A DNA stretch of 64,000 bases, from NCBI GenBank assembly GCA_947646655.1, contig CANSHI010000002.1:147123-211122 (forward strand). The letters are read 5' to 3'. The notes beneath the pieces are model-generated. The model was not told the DNA's origin, ran no database searches, and saw nothing but the letters and a program-made list of their open reading frames with translations. The translations under genes were made by a program, and so were the position numbers. Position 1 is the stretch's first letter. Each line of letters starts with the position of its first letter. This document shows, one piece after another, positions 37,791-58,314 of this stretch. The DNA comes from an uncultured bacterium. GTDB taxonomy: Bacteria > Bacillota_I > Bacilli_A > RF39 > UBA660.

Positions 37791-38168
37791 GACAAAGTTT
37801 TAGTCTGACAAGTGTTATACTAAGATATATTTATTATTGGCTTGAAAAAATTGTGTATAACGTATATAATTAATAATAGAAAAAGACCATTGAGAATAGC
37901 ACTTGATTGGAGAAGATTTTAGTATGGAAGAAAAGACTAGAATAAGAAAACAGTATTAATAGTGGTTATAGTGTGTGCTTTAATTTTGGTAGGAAATTTA
38001 GGATCATACGCTTTCTTCATAGGTCAAGTAGGACAAAATAGGAACGATATTTTTAGCACTAGAATATGTGGATGATTGGCAATGGCACTATAGAATTTCC
38101 GTTTGAAGTAAAGAACGGACAGTATTGAATAAAACATGTATTATATAAAAGGGAGAGTACGAAGAAGA

Positions 38169-39500
38169 ATGAATAAAAAGAAAAAAATAATACTTGCTTC
38201 TATTTTAGGAATTTTAATAAGTTTTCTATTAATAAATTATGATAGTTCTTTTGTCACAAAGCCTTCTAGCAGTAAAACTTTAGCAGTGTATATACAAGAT
38301 GATAATAGTGAGACAGGATATAGTAAAAATGAATCCACAAACTTTCCGACAGATGGGTATGTATTAAATTTAGAAAAGAGTACATGTACAAATGGAGGAG
38401 AATTGAGTCAAGATTCAAATACAAAAAAGATTTCATTAAGTGTAGGATACAAGAGTAAATGTTCATTGTATTTTGATAAGGAAATAAAGTTGGATTCTTC
38501 AACAACTTTAGCAAAATTAGGCAAAACAGTCAAAGAGGATGTACCAAATTTTGCAGAGGCTGCAACAACAGATGAAACAGTCGATGGCTTGTATGCTACG
38601 GAAGATGATTATGGGACAAGCTATTACTATCGAGGAGCTACCACAGATAACTATGTAAAATTTGCAAATTTTTATTGGAGAATCATCAGGATCAATGGGG
38701 ATGGAAGCTTGAGAATAATATATGATGGGACGAGTGTGCATGCAAATGGAACGAATAATACGAATAGATTGGCAATAACAAATCATAAATATAATGCACA
38801 TAACTTTGATGCAAAATATGTCGGATACATGTATGGTCCGAGTGGAACAGGGGCAAGTACAAGTAAAAGTCTAGCACAGACTAATACAGCTGACTCAGAT
38901 ATTAAAAAAGCTATAGAGGCTTGGTATAAGACAAATATATCAGAAAAAGGGTATGATGCCTTTGTAAGCGACAACATATTTTGTAATGATAGAACGACAC
39001 CAGGAAAAGAAAAAACTGGATGGAGTAGTGATACATCTTTAGGGTACGGAAAAAATGCAACAGGATATGGTGCATTGTCACGAATAATGACAGGAAATAA
39101 TAGTACGAGTTTAAGTGGAAAGGATAATCTAGAACTGAAGTTTAAATGTGAGAATAAGAATGATGCATTTACAAAGGAAGATATGGATAAAGGAAATGGA
39201 AAGTTAGAACAAAAAGTAGGGATGATAACAGCAGATGAGATAGTAGCAGCAGGAAGTGGAAAATACGGAGCATCAAATAGTCAATATTATTTATATAAAG
39301 GGAATAGCTATTTCTCTCTTTCACCATATTCTATGCTCAATAATGATGCAAATGTATTTTACGTTAGTAATACTGGAGGAATAAGTGGTTTATATGCTTA
39401 TTACTCATCAGGTGCGGCTCCAGTTATAAATTTAAGTGTAGAATACGTAAGCACAATGAGTGGAAACGGTTCTATGGAAAGTCCATATGAAGTGAAATAA
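38169..39500 (+). CDS. Membrane-anchored extracellular protein, tandem paralogue A
   Basis: N-terminal basic region plus TM (MNKKKKIILASILGILISFLL); conserved Cys pairs; about 60% identical to the downstream paralogue; the track start at 38136 has a less plausible N-terminal extension. Confidence 0.6.
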   Translation: MNKKKKIILASILGILISFLLINYDSSFVTKPSSSKTLAVYIQDDNSETGYSKNESTNFPTDGYVLNLEKSTCTNGGELSQDSNTKKISLSVGYKSKCSLYFDKEIKLDSSTTLAKLGKTVKEDVPNFAEAATTDETVDGLYATEDDYGTSYYYRGATTDNYVKFANFYWRIIRINGDGSLRIIYDGTSVHANGTNNTNRLAITNHKYNAHNFDAKYVGYMYGPSGTGASTSKSLAQTNTADSDIKKAIEAWYKTNISEKGYDAFVSDNIFCNDRTTPGKEKTGWSSDTSLGYGKNATGYGALSRIMTGNNSTSLSGKDNLELKFKCENKNDAFTKEDMDKGNGKLEQKVGMITADEIVAAGSGKYGASNSQYYLYKGNSYFSLSPYSMLNNDANVFYVSNTGGISGLYAYYSSGAAPVINLSVEYVSTMSGNGSMESPYEVK

Positions 39501-39558: not shown

Positions 39559-40923
39559 ATGAAAAAAAATAAAAAAATAATTCTTATTTCTGTTTTAGTA
39601 GTGACAATGAGTTTTTTAGTCTTGGTAAAATTATTAGATGATAAATTAGTAAAAAGGGAGGACTCTTTTATCGAACCTTTTTCCAAACAAAATCAAGCCT
39701 TAGCGGTATACATAGAAGACGAGAATAGTGACATAGGATATATTAAAAATGAATCTACAATCTTTCCGACAGAAGGATATATATTAAACATGGAAAAAAG
39801 TACGTGTACAAATGGTGGATCACTAAGTCAGGATTTGAGTACAAAAAAGATATCGCTAAGAATAGAACATAAAAGTAGTTGCTCATTGTACTTTGATAAA
39901 GAAATGCTTAGTGCTTCTGAAGTACTAGAAGCAAAGATTGCAAACGCAAAATCATCAGATAATCTAAATTTTGCAGAGCCAGCGACGACTGATGAAACGT
40001 CCGATGGATTTTATGTCATGGAAGATGACTATGGAACGAGCTATTATTATCGAGGTGCCACAACAGATAACTATGTCAAATTTGCAGGGTTCTATTGGAG
40101 AATTATACGAATCAATGGAGACGGTTCATTACGTATTTTATATGATGGAACTGAAGCTCATGCAAATGGAGTGAGTAGTGCGAATAGATTAGCATTACAA
40201 AGAATGGCATGGAATACACCAAACTACAACGATGCAAAATATGTAGGATATATGTATGGAGGAGCAAACGGGGTAGCAAGTACAAATAAAAGTGAAGCAC
40301 AGGCAAATGAGACAAATACTAATATAAAAACTGAGCTAGAGAATTGGTATAAGATGAACATAGCAGATAAAGGATATGGTGAGTTTGTAAGTGACGTCAT
40401 ATATTGTAATGACCGGACAACACCAGGGAGTAGTGTAACATTATGGACAAGTGATACAGGATTAGGATATGGATGGCAAACAACAGGATATGGTGCACTG
40501 TCACGAATAATGACAGGGAATAATAGTACAAGTTTAAGTGGAAAGGATAATCCAAAACCGAAGTTCAAATGTGAGAATAAGAATGATGCATTCACAAAGG
40601 AAGATACAGAGAAAGGAAATGGAAAGCTAGAACAAAAAGTGGGAATGATAACAGCAGATGAAATATTAGCAGCAGGAAGTGGAAAGTATAATACAAATAA
40701 TAGCAGTTATTACTTATATAAAGGGAATTGGTATTGGTCGCTCTCGCCTTGTGATGTATATGGCTGGTATGCTCGTGCGTTTATTGTCGATAATAGTGGG
40801 TATATTTACGATACTAATGTTAATAGCTTGGGCGGTGTCGCCCCAGTAATCTCGCTGAGTGCAGAATATGTAAGTACAATGAAGGGAAATGGTACCATGA
40901 AAAAACCATTTGAAGTGAAATAA
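39559..40923 (+). CDS. Membrane-anchored extracellular protein, tandem paralogue B
   Basis: Same architecture and shared blocks (GYGALSRIMTGNNSTSLSGKDN, KFKCENKNDAFTKED, KGNGKLEQKVGMITADEI); RBS AGAGGA. Confidence 0.6.
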   Translation: MKKNKKIILISVLVVTMSFLVLVKLLDDKLVKREDSFIEPFSKQNQALAVYIEDENSDIGYIKNESTIFPTEGYILNMEKSTCTNGGSLSQDLSTKKISLRIEHKSSCSLYFDKEMLSASEVLEAKIANAKSSDNLNFAEPATTDETSDGFYVMEDDYGTSYYYRGATTDNYVKFAGFYWRIIRINGDGSLRILYDGTEAHANGVSSANRLALQRMAWNTPNYNDAKYVGYMYGGANGVASTNKSEAQANETNTNIKTELENWYKMNIADKGYGEFVSDVIYCNDRTTPGSSVTLWTSDTGLGYGWQTTGYGALSRIMTGNNSTSLSGKDNPKPKFKCENKNDAFTKEDTEKGNGKLEQKVGMITADEILAAGSGKYNTNNSSYYLYKGNWYWSLSPCDVYGWYARAFIVDNSGYIYDTNVNSLGGVAPVISLSAEYVSTMKGNGTMKKPFEVK

Positions 40924-42509: not shown

Positions 42510-42730
42510 TTATTTACGAAGATTATGAATTTTAGTAGTAGTTTATATTTTCTTATAGAGAGAAGTGGATTAGCTGGAAGCACTTTAGAAAATAAACTTA
42601 CGAATTTCAATCATAGGAGTAAAACGTAGTTGGGCGTTAACCAAAAAGAGAGCTAGAGATTCTAGAAATTGGGTGGTACCGCGGTTTTTAAAAATCGTCC
42701 CATGATCTGGATTTTTTTTAATGGAAAGGA
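42510..42730 (+). ncRNA. T-box riboswitch leader (Phe specifier) controlling pheS-pheT
   Basis: The canonical T-box sequence AAATTGGGTGGTACCGCGG lies at 42666-42684; AGAGAG (AG-box-like) and a UUC-containing loop (GAATTTCAAT) lie upstream; a T-run follows at 42711-42719. Confidence 0.75.
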
Positions 42731-42737
42731 AAAGTTT

Positions 42738-43775
42738 ATGAAAGAAAAAGTTGAAAAGATAAAAGTAGAATTAAAGGCTTCTTTAGAAGGAAATATTTCT
42801 ATACAAGATCTTGCGAATATTAAAGCAGAATATTTAGGGAAGAAAGGAAAGATTACAGAGTTATCAAATCAGTTAAAAGACTTAAGTAATGAAGAAAAAA
42901 AAGAGTTTGGTAAAAGTTTAAATGAAATTAAAACTTATGCAATTTCTTTGATCGATGAGAAAAGTAAAAGTATAGAAGAAGCGATTTTAAACGAAAAACT
43001 AGAGAAAGAAAAAATAGATATAAGTTTGCCTGGAGTTACTGTAAAAAATGGTGCTCCTAGTATGATCGAAGGGTTAATAGAAAGCTTAGAAGAACTATTT
43101 TTAAGTATGGGTTATGATGTAGTAGAAGGACCTGAAGTTGAAAAGGATTTATATAACTTTGAACTACTTAATTTGCCGAAAGGACATCCAGCAAGAGATG
43201 CACAAGATACATTTTATATTAAAGATGAAGAAATTCTTTTGCGCAGTCAGACTAGTCCAGTTCAAATTAGAACTATGCTTTCAAATGAAGATAAAAGTTC
43301 TATAAGAATTATTTGTCCAGGAAAAACTTATAGACGTGATGATGACGATGCGACTCACACACATCAGTTTACACAAATGGAAGGTTTATTGATCGATAAG
43401 GGAATAAGTCTTGCCGATTTGAAGGGTACATTAGATATCATAGCAAAATATTTGTTTGGAGAGAAAACAGAAACGAGATTTAGAAGTTCATTTTATCCTT
43501 TTACTGAACCAAGTGTTGAGTTCGATGTAAGCTGTCATGCATGTAGTGGAAAGGGTTGTCCTATATGTAAGCATACAGGGTGGATAACTGTTGGAGGTGC
43601 TGGAATGGTACATCCTAAAGTTTTGACTAATTGTGGATATAATCCGGATATAGTTTCAGGATTCGCGTTTGGTTTTGGCATTGAAAGATTAGCAATGTTA
43701 AAGTATGGCGTTACTGATGCGAGAACTTTTTATACAAATGATTTAAGGGTTAATCCCGATAGAAGGGAAGTGTAG
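42738..43775 (+). CDS. pheS: Phenylalanine--tRNA ligase alpha subunit
   Basis: Class II core motifs (FRSSFYPFTEPS, GFAFGFGIERLAML); ATG 42738 follows GGAAAGGAAAAG; the track start at 42669 would run through the T-box. Confidence 0.9.
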   Translation: MKEKVEKIKVELKASLEGNISIQDLANIKAEYLGKKGKITELSNQLKDLSNEEKKEFGKSLNEIKTYAISLIDEKSKSIEEAILNEKLEKEKIDISLPGVTVKNGAPSMIEGLIESLEELFLSMGYDVVEGPEVEKDLYNFELLNLPKGHPARDAQDTFYIKDEEILLRSQTSPVQIRTMLSNEDKSSIRIICPGKTYRRDDDDATHTHQFTQMEGLLIDKGISLADLKGTLDIIAKYLFGEKTETRFRSSFYPFTEPSVEFDVSCHACSGKGCPICKHTGWITVGGAGMVHPKVLTNCGYNPDIVSGFAFGFGIERLAMLKYGVTDARTFYTNDLRVNPDRREV

Positions 43776-43779
43776 GAAG

Positions 43780-46158
43780 ATGATGCGAATTAGTACAAGT
43801 TGGCTTAACGACTATGTCGATATTAGTGATGAAAATTTAAAAGAGCTTGCCGATAAAATTACTAATGCTGGTGTTAATGTTGAGACTGTTGAAGAATATA
43901 ATACACCTAATCTAGTCGTTGGACATGTATTGGAATGTGAAATGCATCCCGATTCAGATCATTTACATGTTTGTAAGGTCGATGTAGGGGATGAAGTATT
44001 ACAAATAGTTTGTGGTGCCCCAAATGTAGGAGCTGATAAGAAAGTTATCGTATCTAAAGTAGGGTGCCTGTTACCTGGTGACATCGAAATTAAAAAGTCA
44101 GTAATGCGTGGTGTAGAATCTAATGGTATGTTATGTGCTTTGTCAGAGTTAGGATTAGAAGAAGATACTCCTGAAAATCATGCAAAAGGTATCCATATTT
44201 TGCCTGATGAAGCGATTGTAGGTAGTAATCCATATAATTATTTAGGATTAGATGATACGATTTATAATTTAGATTTGAACCCTAATAGAGAAGCAGATTG
44301 TACGAATCATATCGGATTTGCCTATGAAGTTGCAAGTGTACTAGGTCGCAGGGTTGAGATGCCTGAAACATGGAGCAATCCTGTAAAAGAAAGTGTGACT
44401 GATGAATTAGAAGTCGATGTTATTACAGACAATTGTACAATGTATAATGCTAGAAAAGTTAAAAATGTAGTTATTAAAGAAAGTCCTGAATTTATTAGAA
44501 ATAGACTAACGAATTGTGGGATGAGATCGATCAACAATGTAGTCGATATAAGCAATTATATTATGTTGGAATATGGTCAACCTCTTCACTTTTTCGATGC
44601 TAAAAAATTAGGTAATAGTATACTAGTTAGAATGGCCGAAGATGGTGAAGAGATAGTTACGTTGGATAATGAAACAAGAAAGTTAACTGGCGAAGATATT
44701 GTTATTACTGACGGAGAAAAACCAGTTGCTATCGCTGGTATAATGGGAGGAATAAATAGTTGTATCGATGAAAACACTACCGATGTAGTTATCGAGTCTG
44801 CTATATTTGATCCTTTAAAAATTAGATATACTTCTAAGAGATTAGATTTAAAAAGTGAAGCTAGTAGAAGATATGAACATGGATTAAATCATGAGTATAC
44901 GATGAATGCAATTGACAGGGCATGTTATTTACTAGAAAAATATGCTGATGCAGAAGTATTGTCTGATACGATTACACACGATATAATAGATAAAACTCCT
45001 AAAGTAGCCAAAGTATCATTAGAAAAAATTAATACACTTTTAGGATTAGAATTAACTTTGGAGGATGCAAAAAGATCTTTAGAAAATTTACAGTTTCCAT
45101 ATGAATTAAAAGAATCTGAATTTATCGTTACAATTCCGATTAGAAGAGGCGATGTTTCTATGAGAGAAGATCTTGTAGAAGAGATTGGAAGACTTTATGG
45201 TTATGATAAAATTGTTGGTAAACTTCCTAAGTTAGATGTAAGACGTGGAGTATATGTCGGTAATGTCGGTTTAAGAAAAAGCATTTCTAAAAGACTAAGA
45301 TCTTTAGGTCTTAATGAAACTAGAACTTATACTTTGATCAGTCCTAGTATGGACAGTCTATTTCAATATAATCGTGGCAATTCTATTACTCTTTTAAAAC
45401 CTATGAGTGTCGATAAATCTATTGTTAGACAAACACTTTTACTGTCATTATTAAATGTTTATGATTATAATATTGCCCATGGAGTAAAAAATATTAATAT
45501 ATATGAAATCGCAAATACTTATAGTGATGTCGATATAGAAGATGAAAAGTTGACAGTTTTAATGAGTGGCGAATATATGAGTAATATGTGGCAAGGGATT
45601 AAAGTTAAAGCTGATTTTTACTTATTAAAAGGTATTATAGAAAATACTCTTGAGTATTTAGGTTATAAAGGTAGAATTAGTTTTGCCGAATCGTGTGATA
45701 TACCAAATATGCATCCAGGTGCTACGGCAATTATAAATATTGATAATAGGGAAGTAGGATTTATAGGTAAAATTCATCCTTTACTTTGTAAGCAAGAAGT
45801 TTACTGCTTAGAGATTTCTCTTAAAAAATTAGCGGAGAAAAAAACACGTGGATTTAAGTTTAAGGAAATGAATAAATTCCCTAGCATTGTTAAAGATGTT
45901 GCCTTTGTAATGCCAGATGATATGTCTTCTTCAGTTGTGGAAAAAGAGATTAAAAGAAGTGGCGGTAAACTATTATTAGATATTCAAGTGTTCGATTTAT
46001 ATAAGGGAGATAATATTGGAAATAATGAAAAATCTATTGCCTATTCTTTAACTTTTGAAAGTGAAGAGAGAACTCTTACAAGTGATGAAGTAAATGATCT
46101 TTTCAACAGAGTTATCGATGAAGTTTGCACGAAGTTAAATCTTAGAATTAGAAATTAG
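43780..46158 (+). CDS. pheT: Phenylalanine--tRNA ligase beta subunit
   Basis: 792 aa; tRNA-binding OB N-terminus, B3/B4, B5 and FDX-ACB order; ATGATG start right after pheS. Confidence 0.9.
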   Translation: MMRISTSWLNDYVDISDENLKELADKITNAGVNVETVEEYNTPNLVVGHVLECEMHPDSDHLHVCKVDVGDEVLQIVCGAPNVGADKKVIVSKVGCLLPGDIEIKKSVMRGVESNGMLCALSELGLEEDTPENHAKGIHILPDEAIVGSNPYNYLGLDDTIYNLDLNPNREADCTNHIGFAYEVASVLGRRVEMPETWSNPVKESVTDELEVDVITDNCTMYNARKVKNVVIKESPEFIRNRLTNCGMRSINNVVDISNYIMLEYGQPLHFFDAKKLGNSILVRMAEDGEEIVTLDNETRKLTGEDIVITDGEKPVAIAGIMGGINSCIDENTTDVVIESAIFDPLKIRYTSKRLDLKSEASRRYEHGLNHEYTMNAIDRACYLLEKYADAEVLSDTITHDIIDKTPKVAKVSLEKINTLLGLELTLEDAKRSLENLQFPYELKESEFIVTIPIRRGDVSMREDLVEEIGRLYGYDKIVGKLPKLDVRRGVYVGNVGLRKSISKRLRSLGLNETRTYTLISPSMDSLFQYNRGNSITLLKPMSVDKSIVRQTLLLSLLNVYDYNIAHGVKNINIYEIANTYSDVDIEDEKLTVLMSGEYMSNMWQGIKVKADFYLLKGIIENTLEYLGYKGRISFAESCDIPNMHPGATAIINIDNREVGFIGKIHPLLCKQEVYCLEISLKKLAEKKTRGFKFKEMNKFPSIVKDVAFVMPDDMSSSVVEKEIKRSGGKLLLDIQVFDLYKGDNIGNNEKSIAYSLTFESEERTLTSDEVNDLFNRVIDEVCTKLNLRIRN

Positions 46159-47818: not shown

Positions 47819-47836
47819 CTCGTATTTTTTAATGTT

Positions 47837-48265
47837 TTATAATAAAAGTTGTATTTTTATATATAAATTATTTTCTTCATTTTTTAAATTGTTTATATGA
47901 GTTTGGAGTATTTGGTTAATCGATGTATTTTCATATTTCGCTTGTAAATCATTCATATATGTTAGGGCATCCTTTTTAAAGTTAAAAACTTTAATTTCAT
48001 AATAGTCAGATACGACATGGTTTTTTGAGTAAAAGACACCAACTCGATAGTCTAGAAGATTGATTGTTTCTAAACAGATTAAAACTTTTATATTAGAAAA
48101 ATGGTATTCATTGATAATAAGCTTTTTAGCATTTTCAGCGGATATATTTTTAATTTTTGTTTTTGGATCGTAATGTTTTAATAAAGTATAATATTGTTTA
48201 CGAAGGTTTTTAACTGATAATTCTTTTTGTATCAGGTAATCGAATGTGTCATCAATAATATGCAT
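47837..48265 (-). CDS. Hypothetical 142-aa protein (repeat copy A)
   Basis: Identical to 51602..52030 except for the last residue; no recognisable motif. Confidence 0.55.
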   Translation of the reverse strand: MHIIDDTFDYLIQKELSVKNLRKQYYTLLKHYDPKTKIKNISAENAKKLIINEYHFSNIKVLICLETINLLDYRVGVFYSKNHVVSDYYEIKVFNFKKDALTYMNDLQAKYENTSINQILQTHINNLKNEENNLYIKIQLLL

Positions 48266-48368
48266 AGGCTGGCCTTTCTTGACTTTATTATATCACATTC
48301 TGCTCGTATTTAGGTCATTTTATCGAATAAAATAAAATTTTTTGCGAAAATTGTATATAAGGTGGTAT

Positions 48369-48830
48369 ATGATGAATAGCACAAGATTTACTGATTTACG
48401 TGAAGAATTGGAGCTAAGTAGGAAAGAGTTAGCTCAAAAGCTAGATGTTTCACCTTCTGTATATGGAAGATGGGAGAGAGCTAAGGCTACTATTCCAACA
48501 GAAAGAATGTATCAATTATCTAATTTTTATCGTGTTAATTTAGACTATTTACTTTCTTTTATAGATGATAAAGTTGAAATATTAAGTGATGACGAAATCG
48601 ATATGGACTTAGTTTCTAAAAGAATAAAAGAGATTAGAACTGACACAGGTGAAACTTTAAGAGCTTTTGTCAAAAGATTAAATACTACAAATTCTACTTG
48701 GAGTGCATATGAAACAGGTAAAGTTCTAATATTAGCAGACTTTTTGTTGGAGATATGTAAAAAGTATAATTATTCTGCTGATTGGATTTTAGGTAGATCT
48801 GATGTAAAGTTTAGAAATATTGAAGACTAA
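48369..48830 (+). CDS. Tandem-HTH XRE-family transcriptional regulator (repeat copy A)
   Basis: Two consecutive HTH_XRE domains (LSRKELAQKLDVSPSVYGRWER; TGETLRAFVKRLNTTNSTWSAYETG); ATG after AAGGTGG; divergent from the 142-aa gene. Confidence 0.7.
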   Translation: MMNSTRFTDLREELELSRKELAQKLDVSPSVYGRWERAKATIPTERMYQLSNFYRVNLDYLLSFIDDKVEILSDDEIDMDLVSKRIKEIRTDTGETLRAFVKRLNTTNSTWSAYETGKVLILADFLLEICKKYNYSADWILGRSDVKFRNIED

Positions 48831-48980
48831 AAAATCTATTTTTGAAAATTTTGTTACTAATTAAATACTATATTCAGATTAAATATAGTGTTTTTTATTA
48901 TATTAAATAATTATAACTTTTATTTTAAGTTTTCTGTTTTTGTGATAAAATATAACTAGAAGAAAGGAAGAAGACATTTT

Positions 48981-49628
48981 ATGAAAATAACTAAATACCC
49001 TCAATCATGTTTATTGGTTGAAACAAATAACAAAAAAATATTAGTAGATGCAGGAGGATTAAAATACAAAGAAAAATATTTTGATATATGGAAACAAGCT
49101 GATATTATTTTATTAACTCATAAGCATGGCGATCATGTAAATTATGATGTTTTAAAAAATATTGATGTTCCTATTTATTCTACTTTAGAGGTACAAAATA
49201 CTTACCCTGAATTAAAAATTAATATTATTAAAGAAAATGATAATATTCCTTTAGATAATATAAATATTGAAGTTGTTAAAGCCGTTCATGGCTATAATCC
49301 AAATTTAAAAAATGGTGGCGAAGTATTTGAAAATGTAGGTTATATAATTAATGATAATAAAACAAGACTTTATATAACAAGCGATACAATATGTTTTAAC
49401 AATGATTATAAAGCCGATATTGTTGCTTTACCTGTTACAGCCTATGGATTAACAATGTCTAGTTATGAAGCATCTTTATTCGCAAAGGATTTAGGCGCTA
49501 AATTAGTTCTACCTATTCACATGGATAATGAAAAATATCCTACTAATTTAGAATATATGAAAAATAATTTTGAAATATTTGATATAAATTATGAAGTATT
49601 AGAAATTGAAGAAAGTTTGGAGGTTTAG
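48981..49628 (+). CDS. Small MBL-fold metallo-hydrolase
   Basis: HxHxDH motif LTHKHGDHVNYD; 215 aa; RBS GAAAGGAAG. Confidence 0.7.
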   Translation: MKITKYPQSCLLVETNNKKILVDAGGLKYKEKYFDIWKQADIILLTHKHGDHVNYDVLKNIDVPIYSTLEVQNTYPELKINIIKENDNIPLDNINIEVVKAVHGYNPNLKNGGEVFENVGYIINDNKTRLYITSDTICFNNDYKADIVALPVTAYGLTMSSYEASLFAKDLGAKLVLPIHMDNEKYPTNLEYMKNNFEIFDINYEVLEIEESLEV

Positions 49629-50011: not shown

Positions 50012-50941
50012 TTATAAATCTTTTAATTTTTCAAAATTTTCTGGTAAATGTATTATAGATAGTAATTGATTTCTATTAAGTGAACCGATTTCTTCATCAT
50101 ATTTAGTTATTAAATCTGATAAATTATCTATTAATATATTAAACTTATTTTTACTTGAAAAAATCTTAATAGATATTAAAATCGCAAACAAATCTTTTTT
50201 ACCTTGTATTATATTATTATTTTTATCTTTCTTTAAATTAAATTCATTATGATATTTAGTTGTTTTAATACCTAATTTATCATCAATAAATGATAAAAGA
50301 ATATCATCGTGGCAGCATATATTCCTTACTCTAACAAGTAATCTTAACATATTGGCAACTTCATTACTATTAATTTTTTCACTAGTTAATTTTTTCTTCA
50401 TATAATCTTTATCATTAGTTTTAGATACATAGAACATATCACGTATCATACCAAATGATAATATTTTCATATATACCCATAATGGAATAAATGAATGATT
50501 ATTCCTATAAAACATTACAGCTTTATTTTTATTACCAAAATCATTTAATTGTTTATCTAAATTAGATAATGTATCACTTAAGTAATTATTTGATAAATTA
50601 TAATTATTGCTATTTAATATATCATTAACTTTAAATCCATATCTATAACAATAATTGTTAATGTAAATTGTTTTTAATTTTTGTTCTATTTCAAGTATAG
50701 AATCTAAAACAATTAACTTTAACATTTTATCAAATATATATAATGAGTATATATCTTCAAAAGAAGTATTATCTTTATAAGTTCCATCAATATTTTTGAA
50801 AGCAAACTTATAACCCATAATAAAATAATAATTATTAGTTTCCAAAATGTTTCTAACATTATTTTCGTTTTTAATATTAATATTTTTAGATTTAATGTTA
50901 TTTATTAATTCATCAATAGTTAAAAAAGTTTTTTCTGACAT
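50012..50941 (-). CDS. Abi_2 (AbiD/AbiF-like) abortive-infection family protein
   Basis: The N-terminus LTIDELINNIKSKNINIKNENNVRNILETNNYYFIMGYKFAF follows the Abi_2 pattern (..eq...L..rGl.i.d...a...L..i.YYrl.gY); about 310 aa; the internal ATG after AGGTGA is preferred over the track start. Confidence 0.6.
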   Translation of the reverse strand: MSEKTFLTIDELINNIKSKNINIKNENNVRNILETNNYYFIMGYKFAFKNIDGTYKDNTSFEDIYSLYIFDKMLKLIVLDSILEIEQKLKTIYINNYCYRYGFKVNDILNSNNYNLSNNYLSDTLSNLDKQLNDFGNKNKAVMFYRNNHSFIPLWVYMKILSFGMIRDMFYVSKTNDKDYMKKKLTSEKINSNEVANMLRLLVRVRNICCHDDILLSFIDDKLGIKTTKYHNEFNLKKDKNNNIIQGKKDLFAILISIKIFSSKNKFNILIDNLSDLITKYDEEIGSLNRNQLLSIIHLPENFEKLKDL

Positions 50942-51062
50942 ATAATCATCACCTGTAATTATTATATCAGAAAAAGACACAAAAGAATAATCCTTTGTGT
51001 GCTCACTTGCAGGAAATTATATTCCTACACTAATAATATATGCAAATATTGAATAAATATAC

Positions 51063-51544: not shown

Positions 51545-51601
51545 GGTATATTCTTTTGCATAAGTCTATAAATAAAGTTTTTAATAATTAAATTACAATT
51601 T

Positions 51602-52030
51602 TTATGATAAAAGTTGTATTTTTATATATAAATTATTTTCTTCATTTTTTAAATTGTTTATATGAGTTTGGAGTATTTGGTTAATCGATGTATTTTCATA
51701 TTTCGCTTGTAAATCATTCATATATGTTAGGGCATCCTTTTTAAAGTTAAAAACTTTAATTTCATAATAGTCAGATACGACATGGTTTTTTGAGTAAAAG
51801 ACACCAACTCGATAGTCTAGAAGATTGATTGTTTCTAAACAGATTAAAACTTTTATATTAGAAAAATGGTATTCATTGATAATAAGCTTTTTAGCATTTT
51901 CAGCGGATATATTTTTAATTTTTGTTTTTGGATCGTAATGTTTTAATAAAGTATAATATTGTTTACGAAGGTTTTTAACTGATAATTCTTTTTGTATCAG
52001 GTAATCGAATGTGTCATCAATAATATGCAT
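51602..52030 (-). CDS. Hypothetical 142-aa protein (repeat copy B)
   Basis: Duplicate of 47837..48265. Confidence 0.55.
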   Translation of the reverse strand: MHIIDDTFDYLIQKELSVKNLRKQYYTLLKHYDPKTKIKNISAENAKKLIINEYHFSNIKVLICLETINLLDYRVGVFYSKNHVVSDYYEIKVFNFKKDALTYMNDLQAKYENTSINQILQTHINNLKNEENNLYIKIQLLS

Positions 52031-52133
52031 AGGCTGGCCTTTCTTGACTTTATTATATCACATTCTGCTCGTATTTAGGTCATTTTATCGAATAAAATAA
52101 AATTTTTTGCGAAAATTGTATATAAGGTGGTAT

Positions 52134-52595
52134 ATGATGAATAGCACAAGATTTACTGATTTACGTGAAGAATTGGAGCTAAGTAGGAAAGAGTTAGCTC
52201 AAAAGCTAGATGTTTCACCTTCTGTATATGGAAGATGGGAGAGAGCTAAGGCTACTATTCCAACAGAAAGAATGTATCAATTATCTAATTTTTATCGTGT
52301 TAATTTAGACTATTTACTTTCTTTTATAGATGATAAAGTTGAAATATTAAGTGATGACGAAATCGATATGGACTTAGTTTCTAAAAGAATAAAAGAGATT
52401 AGAACTGACACAGGTGAAACTTTAAGAGCTTTTGTCAAAAGATTAAATACTACGAATTCTACTTGGAGTGCATATGAAACTGGTAAAGTATTAATATTAG
52501 CAGACTTTTTGTTGGAAATATGTAAAAAGTATAATTATTCTGCTGATTGGATTTTAGGAAGATCTGATGTAAAGTTTAGAAATAATGAAGACTAA
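52134..52595 (+). CDS. Tandem-HTH XRE-family transcriptional regulator (repeat copy B)
   Basis: Duplicate of 48369..48830 with 2 aa substitutions. Confidence 0.7.
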   Translation: MMNSTRFTDLREELELSRKELAQKLDVSPSVYGRWERAKATIPTERMYQLSNFYRVNLDYLLSFIDDKVEILSDDEIDMDLVSKRIKEIRTDTGETLRAFVKRLNTTNSTWSAYETGKVLILADFLLEICKKYNYSADWILGRSDVKFRNNED

Positions 52596-52757
52596 AAATT
52601 CTTTTTAAAGTAAAGAAGAAAAATACGTGAAATAAATGAGATATTTAATCTTTAGATTAGTTATAAGAAAATATTTAAATAGTATTTTTTTTTTAAATTA
52701 TTTATTGTATAATATCCATAATGCATAGGTATTTTAGATTTTATACGGGAGGAACGC

Positions 52758-55058
52758 ATGTTAAAACTAACAAATATAAAAAAAGAATATCAGGGAAAAG
52801 TAGTTTTAGAAGATATAAATTTAGAGTTACCAAATAAAGGGTTAGTTTTATTAAAGGGTCAAAACGGCTCAGGTAAAACTACTTTATTAAATATAATTGG
52901 TGGACTTGAGACTCCCACAAGAGGTTATATAGAGATAGATAATAAAAAACTATCAGTAAGAGAAAAAGAACTTTGTAAGTATCGAGAGGAATATATAAGC
53001 TATATATTTCAAGAAAATAATTTATTTGATAATTTGAGTGTAGAAGAGAATATAAATATAACAGGTAAATCTGAAAAATTTGACGAGATAGTAGAAATAT
53101 TAAAACTAAGAAAACTATTAAATCAAAAGGCAAAAAGTTTATCAGGAGGGGAAAAACAGAGAGTAGCAATAGCAAGAGCAATTACAAAAAAGTCAAAAAT
53201 AATATTAGCGGATGAGCCGACTGCATCAATAGATGCGGAGTCTAAAGATATAATATTAAAATTACTTAAAGAGCTGAGTGAAAGTAGATTAGTAATTTTA
53301 ATATCTCATGATAAAATAGAAATACCTTATTTTGTAGATGAGACTATGTGTTTAAGTCAAGGTAAAGTAACTTTTATGAACAAAAAGAAAGAAAAAAAAG
53401 AAGAATTAGAAGATATTTCAAAATATTATAATAATTTTAACTGTTATCAGTTTACTTTTAAACATCTTTTTGTTAACAAAAAAATGCTAATAAGAAATAG
53501 CATAATTTTAATCTTTCTTATTTTCATACTTTTTATATCATTAATTATCTCTTTTGAGAATATAATGGATGTTCATATTAACACTTTGTTAGCAGAAAAC
53601 GATACTTCATTGATGATTAGTAAACAAAAAGAGTTGGAAGATTTTTCGTGGATAAATGATCGTGATGGCTTTTTAGAAGAGGATCTTGAATATTTTGATG
53701 ATTTAAAATTTAAAAATTCTTTTATTGATCTTAAAACTATACAAGCTCATTACGAACCGGTAAAGTTTGAGATACCTTTTTTACCAGGAAATAGTTATTT
53801 GATCAATCTTAATCAGTTATATTATGCTTCCGATAATTATATTAATCCGAAATATGGAAAAAAGCCTACCTATAAAAATGAAATTGTAATTTCTACATAT
53901 TTAGCAGATAGTATAGTAGAATTTGGAATAATTGATAGTCAAGAAGAAACATTTTATCCTAAAAATTATGAAGATTTATTAAAAACAGATAAATATTTAA
54001 AATTAGGGCCTGCAGACGTTAAAATTGTAGGAATATACGAACTAGATTTGAATAATTATAATAACATAAAAACTGGTAATTTTAATGCAGAACAATATGA
54101 AATATTTAAAAGATATGTTAATAAGTATGCTAGTATTGTGTATGTAAAAGACAGTTTTTATGATCTGTATAAGGATTTAGAATCTTTGCTATATCAAGAT
54201 ACAAAATTTTACATATTAGAAGAAGAATTTACTTATAATATAAATGTTTTTAATAAACCTATAATATTGGAGAATGGAAATACTATAAATGAATTAGCTG
54301 ATAACGAAATTATAATTGGTGAAGAGATTATAAAATTATTAAATGTTAGTAGTAATAGCGTAGACGAAAGTATAGTCTTAACTATAAAATCAAATACTGC
54401 AGGAGTAAAAAAAGATTTATCATTTAAAATAGTTGGAGTATCACAAGCTAATGAAATATATATTAACGAAAGAAATGTTAGTGATTTTTATTCTAAAAAT
54501 ATTGTAGTTAGCAATGTTTTAGTCAACGGATATAGTAAAGAAGATTTAAAAAATATTTTTAATATTTTTCCTTACTACAATAATAAATATATATTATCAA
54601 CTTGTTTTAGTGAAAAATATATTATTATAGAAAAAGAGATAAAAATTATTAAAATTGTGTTAATTATTTTTTCTATAATTTTAATAAGTATAATTATAAT
54701 TTGTGTTATAAATTATTTATTTGATAGTATTGAATTGCACAAATCTGATATATCAATACTTAAATCGTTAGGTATACATGATTCAAAAATAATGTCTTTA
54801 TTTTTTATCGAATCATTTATTGTATTGTTTATTTCTTATATAATAGCTATAGGAATATTTTTACCGATCAGATTGATGTTTAATGTTTATTTTTCTACTA
54901 AAGTAGCATTTAAATGTGAGATTATTCATAATAGTATTTTTATAATAATATTATCGGGAATAATATTATTAATGGCTGATTCGGCTATATTATTTCGTAT
55001 ATTAAATAAAATTAAAAATATATCTCCTAAGGTTATTACAGGAAGTAGTGAATTATAA
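52758..55058 (+). CDS. Fused ABC transporter: ATP-binding domain plus FtsX/MacB-like permease, paralogue 1
   Basis: Walker A GQNGSGKTT, signature LSGGEKQR, Walker B ILADEP; the C-terminal half has an N-proximal TM, a large extracytoplasmic domain and a C-terminal 3-TM bundle; RBS GGGAGGAA. Confidence 0.8.
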   Translation: MLKLTNIKKEYQGKVVLEDINLELPNKGLVLLKGQNGSGKTTLLNIIGGLETPTRGYIEIDNKKLSVREKELCKYREEYISYIFQENNLFDNLSVEENINITGKSEKFDEIVEILKLRKLLNQKAKSLSGGEKQRVAIARAITKKSKIILADEPTASIDAESKDIILKLLKELSESRLVILISHDKIEIPYFVDETMCLSQGKVTFMNKKKEKKEELEDISKYYNNFNCYQFTFKHLFVNKKMLIRNSIILIFLIFILFISLIISFENIMDVHINTLLAENDTSLMISKQKELEDFSWINDRDGFLEEDLEYFDDLKFKNSFIDLKTIQAHYEPVKFEIPFLPGNSYLINLNQLYYASDNYINPKYGKKPTYKNEIVISTYLADSIVEFGIIDSQEETFYPKNYEDLLKTDKYLKLGPADVKIVGIYELDLNNYNNIKTGNFNAEQYEIFKRYVNKYASIVYVKDSFYDLYKDLESLLYQDTKFYILEEEFTYNINVFNKPIILENGNTINELADNEIIIGEEIIKLLNVSSNSVDESIVLTIKSNTAGVKKDLSFKIVGVSQANEIYINERNVSDFYSKNIVVSNVLVNGYSKEDLKNIFNIFPYYNNKYILSTCFSEKYIIIEKEIKIIKIVLIIFSIILISIIIICVINYLFDSIELHKSDISILKSLGIHDSKIMSLFFIESFIVLFISYIIAIGIFLPIRLMFNVYFSTKVAFKCEIIHNSIFIIILSGIILLMADSAILFRILNKIKNISPKVITGSSEL

Positions 55059-55217
55059 AGTTTTCTTGTCTTGTAATTATTCTTAAAAAAAAACTGTCAA
55101 AATGGTTTTTGGCAGATATTAGAAACTTTTTATAGACTTTATTCGTTATTTGAGTTATACTTGTCCTAGAAATACTAAACTATAAAATAGTGGTATAGAA
55201 TTAGGATAGTGAATAGC

Positions 55218-57500
55218 ATGTTAAAGCTAACAAATATAAAAAAAGAATATCAGGGAAAAGTAGTTTTAGAAGATATAAATTTAGAGTTACCAAATAAAGG
55301 GTTAGTTTTATTAAAGGGTCAAAACGGCTCAGGTAAAACTACTTTATTAAATATAATTGGTGGACTTGAGACTCCCACAAGAGGTTATATAGAGATAGAT
55401 AATAAAAAACTATCAGTAAGAGAAAAAGAACTTTGTAAGTATCGAGAGGAATATATAAGCTATATATTTCAAGAAAATAATTTATTTGATAATTTGAGTG
55501 TAGAAGAGAATATAAATATAACAGGTAAATCTGAAAAATTTGACGAGATAGTAGAAATATTAAAACTAAGAAAACTATTAAATCAAAAGGCAAAAAGTTT
55601 ATCAGGAGGGGAAAAACAGAGAGTAGCAATAGCAAGAGCAATTACAAAAAAGTCAAAAATAATATTAGCGGATGAGCCGACTGCATCAATAGATGCGGAG
55701 TCTAAAGATATAATATTAAAATTACTTAAAGAGCTGAGTGAAAGTAGATTAGTAATTTTAATATCTCATGATAAAATAGAAATACCTTATTTTGTAGATG
55801 AGACTATATGTTTAAGTCATGGTAAAGTAAGTTTTATGAGAAGACTAAATATTGATATTGCAACTTCTAAAATAAACAATAGAAATAATGTATACAATTT
55901 TAATATCTTAAGTTTTACGAAAAAAAATTTTATAACTGACAAAAAGAAAACTGTCAGAAACAGTATTTTACTGCTGATTACATTTTTGTTTCTGCTGTTA
56001 ATATCCTCTATCTCAAGCATCGATTTTAAAATGATGTTAGTTGACACCTTAACTTTGGAAAAAGATAATTTGTTAATGTTTAATAAATCAAACAGTACAA
56101 TTAATGATTTCAAGGAACAAGAAATAGTTTTTTTTAAAAATAATATTAATTCGGAAAAATTAGAATTAGGCTATAGTATAGAAGATAATTATAAATCAAT
56201 CAATTTTGAGATTAACTATAATTTTGGCAAATCATTAAATAATTTATATTTTTTGAATGCTAAGTTTATAGAACCAGATTACGGAACTAAGCCAATGAAA
56301 GATGATGAAATTGTTATATCGTCATACTTAGCTGATTTAATTATTCAGTCTAATGTTGATAACAATATAAATAGTTCTACTAATTATGAAACTTTAGTTA
56401 ATGGATTTTCGTTGAAATTAGGTAATCACTTAGTTCGTATTGTTGGAATATATAAAGTTAATTTGCCATCGTTACAAGAAATGAAAGTAAAAAATATTTA
56501 TAAGCAAGAAATATATGAAGAGATTATTAAAAATAGTGCAAGTAACATATATGTAACAGATAACTTTTTTAATATTTATGATGACTTAAATAAAGTAATT
56601 GATGTGGAGAATTATGTTTTTCCTTATAAAGAGTTTCAACCTAATCAAACTTCCTTTGGTGGATATGATCCGCATTCATTTAAAATTTTTAAAAATTCCG
56701 TAAATCTAGTAGATGGGACACTTATAAAAGGCATAGATGATCATGAAATTATTGTAAACACTGATGTATTAAATTATGAACATTTAAAGGTTAATGATTG
56801 TATTGGTAAAGAAATAATATTTAATATAGGTGATAATAATTATAATAACATTGGTAAAATTAAAGGTGTTATTAAGGGAGTATCAGCTGATAATAATATA
56901 TATATAAATCAGAGCAATATTCCTGAATATTTGACTAGTAATATAAAAATTAGAAAAGTAATGATTCATGAGGATAATCGAGAATTATTAGAAAGTTTAA
57001 TTACAAATGATCCTTTATCTTTTAATGAAAATACTTATGTAGTTTGGACTAATTATAGTAAAAAATTTGAAAATTTGAAATATACAATTGAAGTATTAAA
57101 AAATATTTCAATCGTAATCACAATAATTTTTTTAGTAATATCTGTAGCGTTCTTATTTAATTATGTTAAATCTAATATTGAATTACATAAAAAAGATATA
57201 GCCATTTTAAAATCATTAGGCATATCAAATGTTAAAATAATGCAATCTTTTCTTTATAAATCGATAAACTTAACTATAGTGGCATTAATTTATTCTTTAT
57301 TTTCATTTGTTATCATACGATTTATAATCAATGTGACAGTTAGTAATATTTTGGCCTTTAAAACAAATATTATTCCATTACGCTGGTATCTGTTATTGTT
57401 AATCCCTATTTTATCTTTATTGATAAATTGTTTAATATCTTTATTAACCTTTAATAAGATTAATAAGATATATCCTCAAACTTTATTAAAGAAGTTTTAA
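55218..57500 (+). CDS. Fused ABC transporter: ATP-binding domain plus FtsX/MacB-like permease, paralogue 2
   Basis: The first roughly 200 aa are identical to paralogue 1 and the permease half is divergent; the start is placed at MLKLTN by analogy, whereas the track starts 3 codons earlier. Confidence 0.8.
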   Translation: MLKLTNIKKEYQGKVVLEDINLELPNKGLVLLKGQNGSGKTTLLNIIGGLETPTRGYIEIDNKKLSVREKELCKYREEYISYIFQENNLFDNLSVEENINITGKSEKFDEIVEILKLRKLLNQKAKSLSGGEKQRVAIARAITKKSKIILADEPTASIDAESKDIILKLLKELSESRLVILISHDKIEIPYFVDETICLSHGKVSFMRRLNIDIATSKINNRNNVYNFNILSFTKKNFITDKKKTVRNSILLLITFLFLLLISSISSIDFKMMLVDTLTLEKDNLLMFNKSNSTINDFKEQEIVFFKNNINSEKLELGYSIEDNYKSINFEINYNFGKSLNNLYFLNAKFIEPDYGTKPMKDDEIVISSYLADLIIQSNVDNNINSSTNYETLVNGFSLKLGNHLVRIVGIYKVNLPSLQEMKVKNIYKQEIYEEIIKNSASNIYVTDNFFNIYDDLNKVIDVENYVFPYKEFQPNQTSFGGYDPHSFKIFKNSVNLVDGTLIKGIDDHEIIVNTDVLNYEHLKVNDCIGKEIIFNIGDNNYNNIGKIKGVIKGVSADNNIYINQSNIPEYLTSNIKIRKVMIHEDNRELLESLITNDPLSFNENTYVVWTNYSKKFENLKYTIEVLKNISIVITIIFLVISVAFLFNYVKSNIELHKKDIAILKSLGISNVKIMQSFLYKSINLTIVALIYSLFSFVIIRFIINVTVSNILAFKTNIIPLRWYLLLLIPILSLLINCLISLLTFNKINKIYPQTLLKKF

Positions 57501-57558
57501 TTGGTTTGTATTTTAATTTAATATATTAGAATATAAATAGAAAGAAGGTAAAGACTTT

Positions 57559-58035
57559 ATGAAAATGAAAAAAATTTTGTTAATTGCTTTTGCATTTGTT
57601 GCTAGCATATTTGTGGCACAAGATGTTCATGCTGCGTCATATACAATAAATTTTAATAATTTTAACAATTATCAAAATCTTGGAGCTGCTTCGACTTTTG
57701 GTGGAATTAGCCGGATTAAATATGTCAAAGTTAATGTAACTAGTACAACAGGTAAATATACCGTTGAATTTGGAAGACAAATAGCATCTGCTGGCAGTTA
57801 TGAGATGGTTTCACAAGCTATTTCTACCTATAATGGTGCAAGCACTATTTATTTCATTCCTCAAAGCATGAGTTGTCCATCAGGATATACAACATGTGTG
57901 ACAGTTTCAGAATCAAAGCCAGGAGTTAGTCATGATTATATTTCTGATAATACATTAAGATCAATCGTATATCTAAAGAGTAAAGCAGTTTTAGGATCAT
58001 CAAAGATGACGGGTTCAATTACAGTATATAATTAA
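57559..58035 (+). CDS. Small secreted protein (signal peptide, Cys pair)
   Basis: MKMKKILLIAFAFVASIFVAQDVHA/AS signal peptide; about 130-aa mature part with CPSGYTTC; RBS GAAAGAAGG. Confidence 0.55.
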   Translation: MKMKKILLIAFAFVASIFVAQDVHAASYTINFNNFNNYQNLGAASTFGGISRIKYVKVNVTSTTGKYTVEFGRQIASAGSYEMVSQAISTYNGASTIYFIPQSMSCPSGYTTCVTVSESKPGVSHDYISDNTLRSIVYLKSKAVLGSSKMTGSITVYN

Positions 58036-58239: not shown

Positions 58240-58314
58240 TGGAGGAACCGACCAGATTTGAACTGGTGATCAGGGTGTTGCAGACCCACGCCTTACCACT
58301 TGGCTACGGTTCCA
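58240..58314 (-). tRNA. tRNA-Cys (anticodon GCA)
   Basis: The minus strand reads GGAACCG-TA-GCCAAGTGGTAAGGC-G-TGGGT-CTGCAAC-ACCCT-GATC-ACCAGTTCAAATCTGGT-CGGTTCC-T-CCA, a cloverleaf with a TTCAAAT T-loop, anticodon loop CU-GCA-AC, and encoded CCA. Confidence 0.85.

Follow-up and report, generated by a model that had tools for sequence, protein, structure and literature searches.

Concerted evolution of the ATPase-coding segment of two tandem ABC genes

Two tandem genes in the 64,000-nt stretch of bacterial chromosome analysed here (part of contig CANSHI010000002.1, low in GC at ~25–31%; hereafter the window, on whose full length all its coordinates are counted) encode fused ATP-binding cassette (ABC) proteins of the MacB type, ABC-A and ABC-B, each consisting of a nucleotide-binding domain (NBD) followed by an FtsX-type permease half. 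Comparison with related loci gives good support to the view that the NBD-coding 0.62-kb segment of these genes undergoes concerted evolution by recurrent intrachromosomal gene conversion in the clade formed by the window and L004, a locus from another species. Within a genome the two NBD segments are 97.5–99.4% identical, against 82.6% between orthologues, and the permeases track orthology; the first-pass annotation of the window, which had read its mosaic pattern as gene conversion homogenising the ATPase domains, is borne out on this point.

In the window the homogenised block is a direct repeat of 624 nt at an offset of 2460, with 4 mismatches at gene positions 9, 591, 603 and 614, in agreement with the near-identity already noticed in the first ~600 nt of the two genes. 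Its 5′ edge lies 2 nt before the ATG and the sequence further upstream differs, so that the shared part of the 5′ untranslated region described earlier amounts to just these 2 nt. The alignment of the two genes places the 3′ breakpoint at codon 207, where the NBD ends according to the structure model. The antisense open reading frames (ORFs) 52879–53181 and 55339–55641 have identical 100-aa translations and are, as had been supposed, by-products of the repeat. Past the block, identity between A and B is ~53% at the nt level and 31–34% at the aa level. The permease halves align end to end in BLASTP and are clearly old, anciently diverged paralogues with more in common than the bare architecture that had been ascribed to them.

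All compared sequences are metagenome assemblies. L003 is the window's species from another sample, L004 and L002 belong to one different species (pheS/pheT 74–76% identical to those of the window at the aa level), and L005 is a distant relative of the window locus. In codon-aligned comparisons, identity between the NBDs of A and B was 0.994 within both the window and L003, 0.986 within L004 and 0.975 within L002, whereas the orthologous NBDs of the window and L004 were identical at 0.826. For the permeases the order was reversed: 0.809 (A–A) and 0.786 (B–B) between the window and L004, as against 0.52 between A and B. Neighbour-joining trees conflict, the NBDs clustering by genome and the permeases by orthology, and this implies homogenisation in each lineage after the split. 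Concerted evolution is thus indicated both by the identity table and by the incongruence of the trees. The companion proposal, that the extracytoplasmic domains are diversifying, was rejected, since the A/B divergence is ancient and the permease orthologues evolve at the housekeeping rate (70–74% aa identity vs. 74–76% for pheS/pheT); accelerated evolution was looked for in the pumps and in the small secreted protein encoded next to them (window vs. relatives), and none was found.

The block begins at the start codon and ends at nt 622/623 in both species, and the alignments show the limits of the putative conversion tracts to coincide with the edges of the homology block, i.e. the start codon and codon 207 at the NBD end. 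In the interior of the L004 block, A and B differ solely at 9 sites clustered at nt 42–77, a cluster that looks like a partial conversion tract, and in P0166 and P0167, fragments from other assemblies that represent L004-like strains, the A and B 5′ patches are swapped. The shared edges, the 9-difference patch and the swapped patches all argue against one recent NBD replacement per lineage in place of recurrent conversion, which we hold to be quite improbable, keeping in mind that the comparison is limited to two species-level lineages. As a separate observation, P0167 (A-type 5′ patch and B linker) and P0169 (B permease) were assigned to one 8.3-kb contig, which may reflect a recombinational deletion that produced an A-NBD::B-permease hybrid, or else a chimera made in assembly.

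Tandem pairs of other lineages have divergent NBDs (36–70% aa identity), and homogenised NBDs together with a ~160-nt spacer are special to the window/L004 clade. The two NBDs of the distant pair in L005 (1473–6104; 73% nt identity) also cluster together in the NBD tree, which suggests either conversion at an earlier time or a duplication within this lineage.

Among bacterial paralogues, concerted evolution by gene conversion is known, for instance, from tufA/tufB and from rRNA operons. The ABC pair resembles these in that paralogues are closer within a genome than orthologues are between genomes and in that the tract edges are sharp. In contrast to them, conversion here is limited to one domain of a multidomain gene, and the resulting mosaic paralogues share 99% identity over one part and 31% over the rest. 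No directly comparable case emerged when the literature was searched for gene conversion specific to the NBDs of ABC paralogues.

Probable contribution of repeat collapse to the observed identity

The exact identity of the NBDs is doubtful because the differences between the window and L003 sit in repeats and are parallel in both copies. The two sequences differ at 41 positions over 12.5 kb, 40 of which fall within the NBD repeat or within a 1-kb XRE repeat located upstream; outside the repeats the two sequences are 100% identical but for a 1-nt indel at 50195. Further, the remaining A/B differences lie near the repeat edges, within about one k-mer, and in several assemblies the contigs are broken inside the NBD. 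The most economical reading of these data is that short-read assemblers collapsed the interior paralogue-specific variants and used one allele for both copies. Cross-copy BLAST gave 98.1% identity (12 of 624 positions different), and the A/B identity of 99.4% is probably inflated by repeat collapse, with a true A/B divergence of ~2%; 8 sites at gene positions 279–535 are predicted to differ between the true A and B copies. Repeat-confined single-nucleotide polymorphisms (SNPs) between metagenome assemblies therefore mimic co-conversion and are not to be taken as biology.

The parallel differences, the position of the surviving A/B variants and the contig breaks also speak for a more radical explanation, in which an assembler threaded one collapsed repeat node into two sites and the real NBDs are as divergent as usual, but we consider this very improbable. 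An assembler can collapse two copies only if they are highly similar to begin with, at more than roughly 95% identity. Neither ORF is disrupted, and each runs in frame into a permease half of its own; the layout recurs in four assemblies, made independently, which represent two species, and the NBD sequences are specific to the species. Variants peculiar to one copy are present at the block edges, and contig breaks inside the NBD are expected of a genuine repeat. An assembly duplication, which had been named earlier as a finding that would overturn the conversion hypothesis, fails as an explanation on the same grounds of prior similarity, intact ORFs, four assemblies of two species and copy-specific edge variants.

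ABC-A and ABC-B are fused MacB-type proteins

Both window proteins matched PF00005 (ABC_tran, 2.3e-34 for each) and, C-terminally, PF02687 (FtsX; 7.7e-9 for ABC-A and 1.7e-10 for ABC-B, both above the gathering score), so that the two tandem fused ATPase–permease ORFs reported earlier are indeed present. An AlphaFold2 model of ABC-A, computed from a 21-sequence alignment (predicted local distance difference test score, pLDDT, 85), gives helices at residues 241–265, 618–660, 675–716 and 727–753 and a mixed α/β domain at 266–617. The layout of the protein is accordingly read as NBD (1–207), first transmembrane helix TM1 (~241–265), extracytoplasmic domain (~266–617) and TM2–4 (618–753), that is, four transmembrane helices, the first two of which are separated by a large extracytoplasmic domain. 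In a Foldseek search of the PDB the top matches of the model were structures of MacB (5lil, 5lj7, 5gko and 5nik), which it matched over the full length with E values of 2e-29 to 6e-23 and target-normalised template-modelling scores (TMt) of 0.54–0.64. Together with the Pfam FtsX match, this upholds the earlier assignment to the FtsX/MacB type. Sequence searches of the PDB gave matches confined to the NBD; the permease halves matched LolCE, FtsX and MacB weakly, and neither protein matched PF12704 (MacB_PCD) at E ≤ 0.01. The extracytoplasmic domain of MacB comprises ~200 aa, whereas that found here comprises ~350 aa and, as modelled, resembles MacB at the level of the fold only.

The full-length ABC family comprises about 23 clusters, all from uncultured Bacilli-type metagenome-assembled genomes (MAGs), with pairwise identities of ~25–35% for the permease halves and ~50% for the NBDs. 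The best NCBIfam match of the NBDs was TIGR03608 (L_ocin_972_ABC) for both window proteins and for three of the four relatives tested, the scores of the window proteins (168.8 and 172 bits) being below the 254.85 cut-off. TIGR01654 (7-TM bacteriocin-associated) was not matched by the window permease halves; L013_1 alone gave a weak match to it (7e-4, 18 bits). Scans of genome contigs returned 7 loci and scans of metagenome contigs 1, the window's own species being in neither.

Tandem fused ABC pairs recur in seven loci. In a clade of ~650-aa proteins, the position-1 and position-2 genes form separate old clades that have been retained together. The Walker A, Q-loop, signature, Walker B and H-loop motifs of the NBD are canonical in both members of every pair examined. 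Each gene would seem to need its own NBD, because relatives with divergent NBDs keep the tandem layout. Two relatives show further features next to these genes. In L007 (687–9686) a 521-aa sortase-domain protein and a 1007-aa protein without a family match precede the tandem pair, and in L022 (76–2795) an ABC gene lacking its first ~66 codons adjoins an ORF for an FtsX-like C-terminus, which suggests a rearranged or deleted pair.

A family of small secreted proteins is linked to the ABC pairs

The gene downstream of ABC-B encodes a 158-aa protein whose N-terminus has the features of a Sec-type signal peptide (an MKMKK n-region, a hydrophobic core and a VHA|AS cleavage motif) and which contains two cysteines, C106 and C113, as had been noted from the sequence. 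No match to it was found in Pfam, NCBIfam or PADLOC, and hence none to a bacteriocin or toxin family, a check that had been suggested for it. A word-based homology search gave 2 clusters, one relative, while an exhaustive HMMER search and a profile search retrieved a family of signal-bearing proteins of 136–191 aa in which Y98, P101, C106, P107 and C113 are invariant. Clustered at 50% identity, the yield of the exhaustive search comes to ~15 representatives, of which 12 are small proteins, and the family is matched by no Pfam or NCBIfam model. The AlphaFold2 model of the 158-aa protein (pLDDT 78) is an all-β jelly roll, and its C-x6-C loop may be closed by a disulfide. Foldseek returned generic weak matches at template-modelling scores of ~0.5, among them a carbohydrate-binding module from Ruminococcus, Ena pilus subunits, PirA and viral capsids.

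Members of this family directly adjoin fused ABC genes in six lineages of uncultured gut-type bacteria, the neighbour being a tandem pair in all but L022, where it is a single, N-terminally truncated ABC gene (Table 1). The linkage of the small secreted protein to the pumps, at first no more than a suggestion from adjacency, therefore extends beyond the window. Two candidates from L005 were discarded: a downstream 151-aa ORF, the real homologue being upstream, and a 244-aa secreted protein that was unrelated by hhalign. The small gene shows clean presence/absence over 640 bp between L002, which carries it, and L004, which does not, while the ABC genes of the two are 99% identical. In L004 both pumps are intact and the tRNA-Cys gene directly follows ABC-B. 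That the pumps are kept where the small gene is missing accords better with an immunity role than with the small protein being an obligate subunit, and it fits the pattern of orphan immunity.

Members of a third subfamily were found in gene clusters at L015 8001–16461, L017 8001–13144 and L021 8001–12872. In these, a Cys-loop protein of 176–179 aa with the motif KCPGKKxxCV heads the cluster, whose other products are a helix-turn-helix (HTH) regulator, two unknown proteins, a protein of 383 aa that carries a signal peptidase domain of the SipW/archaeal type, and a DUF5305 protein. From its gene content, the cluster may be a matrix- or fibre-type operon.

Layout of the locus and neighbouring genes

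The locus (Table 1) is syntenic, being kept between pheT and the tRNA-Cys gene, and the relatives are MAGs called "Bacilli bacterium" with Spo0A nearby. For ABC-B, the ORF listing begins at GTG 55209; ATG 55218, from which the length of 760 aa is counted, is the likelier start because it gives the same N-terminus as in ABC-A. The counterpart of the A–B spacer in L004 is 162 nt long with motifs partly conserved, whereas the spacers of the tandem pairs in other lineages are mostly just 8–10 nt. Upstream of ABC-A, a block of 25 nt is the same in the window and L004 while the intergenic DNA around it has diverged; at the level of consensus it can be read as a promoter with the extended −10 element TGTATAAT. 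A scan for promoters and terminators gave no useful signal, the DNA being AT-rich (67 sites vs. 62 expected), and an Rfam scan of 46–60 kb gave the tRNA-Cys gene alone, with no riboswitch or leader.

Table 1. Features of the ABC locus in the window and positions of small-protein family members in related loci
Feature	Locus	Coordinates	Strand	Remarks
pheS/pheT	window	42669–46158
XRE cassette, copy 1	window	47835–48835		direct repeat
MBL-fold gene (metallo-β-lactamase fold)	window	48981–49628		between XRE cassette copies
AbiD/Abi_2 gene	window	50012–50980	−	between XRE cassette copies
XRE cassette, copy 2	window	51600–52600		direct repeat
Candidate promoter block 5′ of ABC-A	window	52697–52721	+	conserved in L004; putative extended −10 at 52706–52713
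Homogenised block, copy 1 (NBD-coding 5′ end of ABC-A)	window	52756–53379	+	4 mismatches/624 nt vs. copy 2
ABC-A, fused MacB-type (type VII) ABC protein, 766 aa	window	52758–55058	+	ORF, Pfam, AlphaFold2, Foldseek
A–B spacer, 159 nt, unique sequence	window	55059–55217	+	possible internal promoter and ribosome-binding site of ABC-B
Homogenised block, copy 2 (NBD-coding 5′ end of ABC-B)	window	55216–55839	+	alignment to copy 1
ABC-B, paralogous fused MacB-type ABC protein, 760 aa	window	55218–57500	+	ORF, Pfam; NBD 203/207 aa same as ABC-A
158-aa protein with Sec-type signal peptide	window	57559–58035	+	predicted jelly roll; C106-x6-C113 loop; unannotated family
tRNA-Cys, conserved downstream boundary of locus	window	58240–58313	−	ARAGORN and Rfam
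Family member	window/L002			downstream of ABC pair
Family member	L005	861–1385		upstream of pair; TTG start; 32% identity, E 3e-11
Family member	L013/L014			next to ABC pair
Family member	L019			next to ABC pair
Family member	L020			next to ABC pair
Family member	L022	2902–3408		downstream of truncated ABC gene

The duplicated XRE cassette upstream of the pumps is real (~1 kb, 7 mismatches between copies); in each copy the minus strand holds an ORF of 142 aa, and the plus strand encodes a double-HTH XRE protein of 162 aa. Its proposed role as a regulator of the pumps did not hold: the cassette is missing from the loci of five relatives (L004, L005, L013, L019 and L020) and brackets an islet of AbiD and MBL genes, and the candidate promoter block is kept in L004, which has no cassette. 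Judging from this context, the cassette more probably belongs to a small defence islet, which is lacking at the L004 locus. The indel at 50195 splits AbiD in L003 into ORFs of 59 and 267 aa, whereas the window copy is intact (322 aa). Upstream of pheST, the window further contains tandem 454-aa paralogues (38136–39500 and 39559–40923) with 74–84% nt identity and without a Pfam match.

Discussion

On balance we consider it probable that the homogenised-NBD MacB-type pair works as an A–B heterodimer that acts on, or protects against, the secreted protein encoded beside it. Support for this functional proposal is at the level of conserved gene linkage, from which function is inferred. ABC-A and ABC-B would together contribute two different permease and extracytoplasmic halves and two effectively identical ATPases, which would give a stoichiometry like that of LolCDE. 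Such a complex would act by mechanotransmission at the outer face of the membrane, and its target would be the adjacent Sec-exported jelly-roll protein with its disulfide loop, which it would either expel or release, or against which it would guard the cell in the manner of a toxin/immunity system. The evidence for pairing consists of the conserved tandem arrangement and of the co-retained position-specific clades within the ~650-aa clade.

The idea of a heterodimer acting on a protein is drawn from the precedents of STII, LolC/LolE and bacteriocin-associated ABC systems. MacB-type transporters use ATP-driven mechanotransmission on extracytoplasmic targets without moving the substrate across the membrane, and MacAB-TolC expels the enterotoxin STII, which is Sec-exported and disulfide-bonded (PMC5985334). 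Like MacB, the window proteins have an N-terminal NBD fused to a four-TM FtsX-type permease with a large TM1–TM2 extracytoplasmic domain, and the small Sec-exported protein with a predicted disulfide that is encoded beside them recalls the handling of STII by MacB. Unlike MacAB-TolC, the locus has no MacA/HlyD-type adaptor and no TolC-like gene or other outer-membrane duct among the ORFs listed and scanned (~46–61 kb), and the host is apparently a monoderm of the Bacilli type, to judge from the MAG names of its relatives and from Spo0A; moreover, two tandem paralogues are found in place of one homodimer-forming gene.

The closest analogue of different permeases with identical NBDs is LolCDE, in which a heterodimer of the paralogous LolC and LolE works with two LolD subunits, i.e. 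two copies of one ATPase (PMC5985334). LolD is encoded by a separate gene, whereas here an NBD is fused to each of the permeases, and the two NBDs are kept identical by conversion at the DNA level; further, the LolCDE heterodimer is known, while A–B pairing is proposed. Sequence similarity of the window permease halves to LolC/E is weak (E ~1e-3 to 5e-6).

Among bacteriocin-associated systems, AS-48H is a MacB-type component (PMC5985334), and in the Lcn972 operon a secreted bacteriocin is encoded together with a putative ABC immunity transporter (PMC4055356). The window locus is like the Lcn972 operon (with its orf2–orf3 ABC immunity genes) in that a small, β-rich, Sec-exported protein is encoded beside an ABC system, and also in the top NCBIfam match of its NBDs, TIGR03608, at 169–172 bits against the cut-off of 254.85. 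It is unlike it in that the 158-aa protein, which has no match to the Lcn972 structural gene family in Pfam or NCBIfam (PF09683/TIGR01653), differs by family and fold, and in having fused FtsX-type permeases instead of a separate 7-TM protein.

Several findings weigh against this explanation of the locus. A degenerate ATP site that would force A–B pairing was sought in the aligned NBD motifs and none was found. The 158-aa protein matches no bacteriocin or toxin family in Pfam, NCBIfam or PADLOC, and the structure of lactococcin 972 was not in the top 50 Foldseek PDB matches of its model. The third subfamily of small proteins adjoins an HTH regulator, a SipW-type signal peptidase and DUF5305 instead of an ABC pair. 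Both the ABC genes and the small protein show a roughly housekeeping rate of evolution, are syntenic and carry no arms-race signal. Finally, the exact within-genome identity and the co-varying SNPs are probably artefacts of collapse.

The first alternative concerns the small protein, which could be a non-toxic extracytoplasmic accessory or structural protein, either an adaptor that docks on the large extracytoplasmic domains, as EnvC does with FtsEX, or a surface or fibre subunit that the ABC machine sets free. The jelly-roll fold, which weakly resembles a carbohydrate-binding module and Ena pilus subunits, would fit this explanation, as would the approximately housekeeping rate of evolution and the position of the third subfamily beside a SipW-type signal peptidase and an HTH regulator weakly matching SlrR, which recalls matrix-fibre operons. 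The Foldseek matches are weak, however, at template-modelling scores of ~0.5, and the gene is missing from L004 where both pumps are intact, and we regard the accessory role as rather doubtful.

It is also conceivable, though unlikely, that the two pumps are independent homodimers with different substrates, e.g. in resistance to antimicrobial peptides or xenobiotics, and that homogenisation is a neutral by-product and the small protein no partner at all. MacB and FtsX are homodimers (PMC5985334), the NBD motifs are canonical in both copies, L006 has a single ABC gene, and the small gene is dispensable in L004. Against this stand the tandem pairs in seven loci, mostly with the 8–10-nt spacers typical of co-translated partners, the ~650-aa clade that keeps its old position-1 and position-2 clades together, and the presence of the small-protein family next to such pairs in six lineages.

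Extending the heterodimer proposal, we tentatively put forward, as a doubtful possibility, a hitherto undescribed three-part envelope system of uncultured Bacilli, in which a type VII ABC heterodimer releases a Sec-exported jelly-roll protein with a disulfide loop, exports it through the wall or neutralises it, with the two ATPases kept identical by ongoing conversion in one clade. If this were true, conversion would recreate at the DNA level a machine of two permeases and one ATPase. Recombination between the 0.62-kb direct repeats may also delete the DNA between them and leave a single hybrid pump, of which P0167 gives a hint.

Cumulatively, the system combines known kinds, namely a MacB-type ABC system and concerted evolution of paralogues, with a new element, a partner-protein family that had not been described. 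The pair offers a clear case from nature of concerted evolution that is restricted to one domain of multidomain bacterial genes, and the homogenisation of the ATPase engine while the substrate-facing halves are ~70% different bears on the evolution of heteromeric ABC machines. An unannotated family of secreted proteins is defined, whose conserved genomic partner is a tandem MacB-type pair, and family and pair together offer a way of testing how type VII ABC proteins function in gut bacteria of the Gram-positive type.

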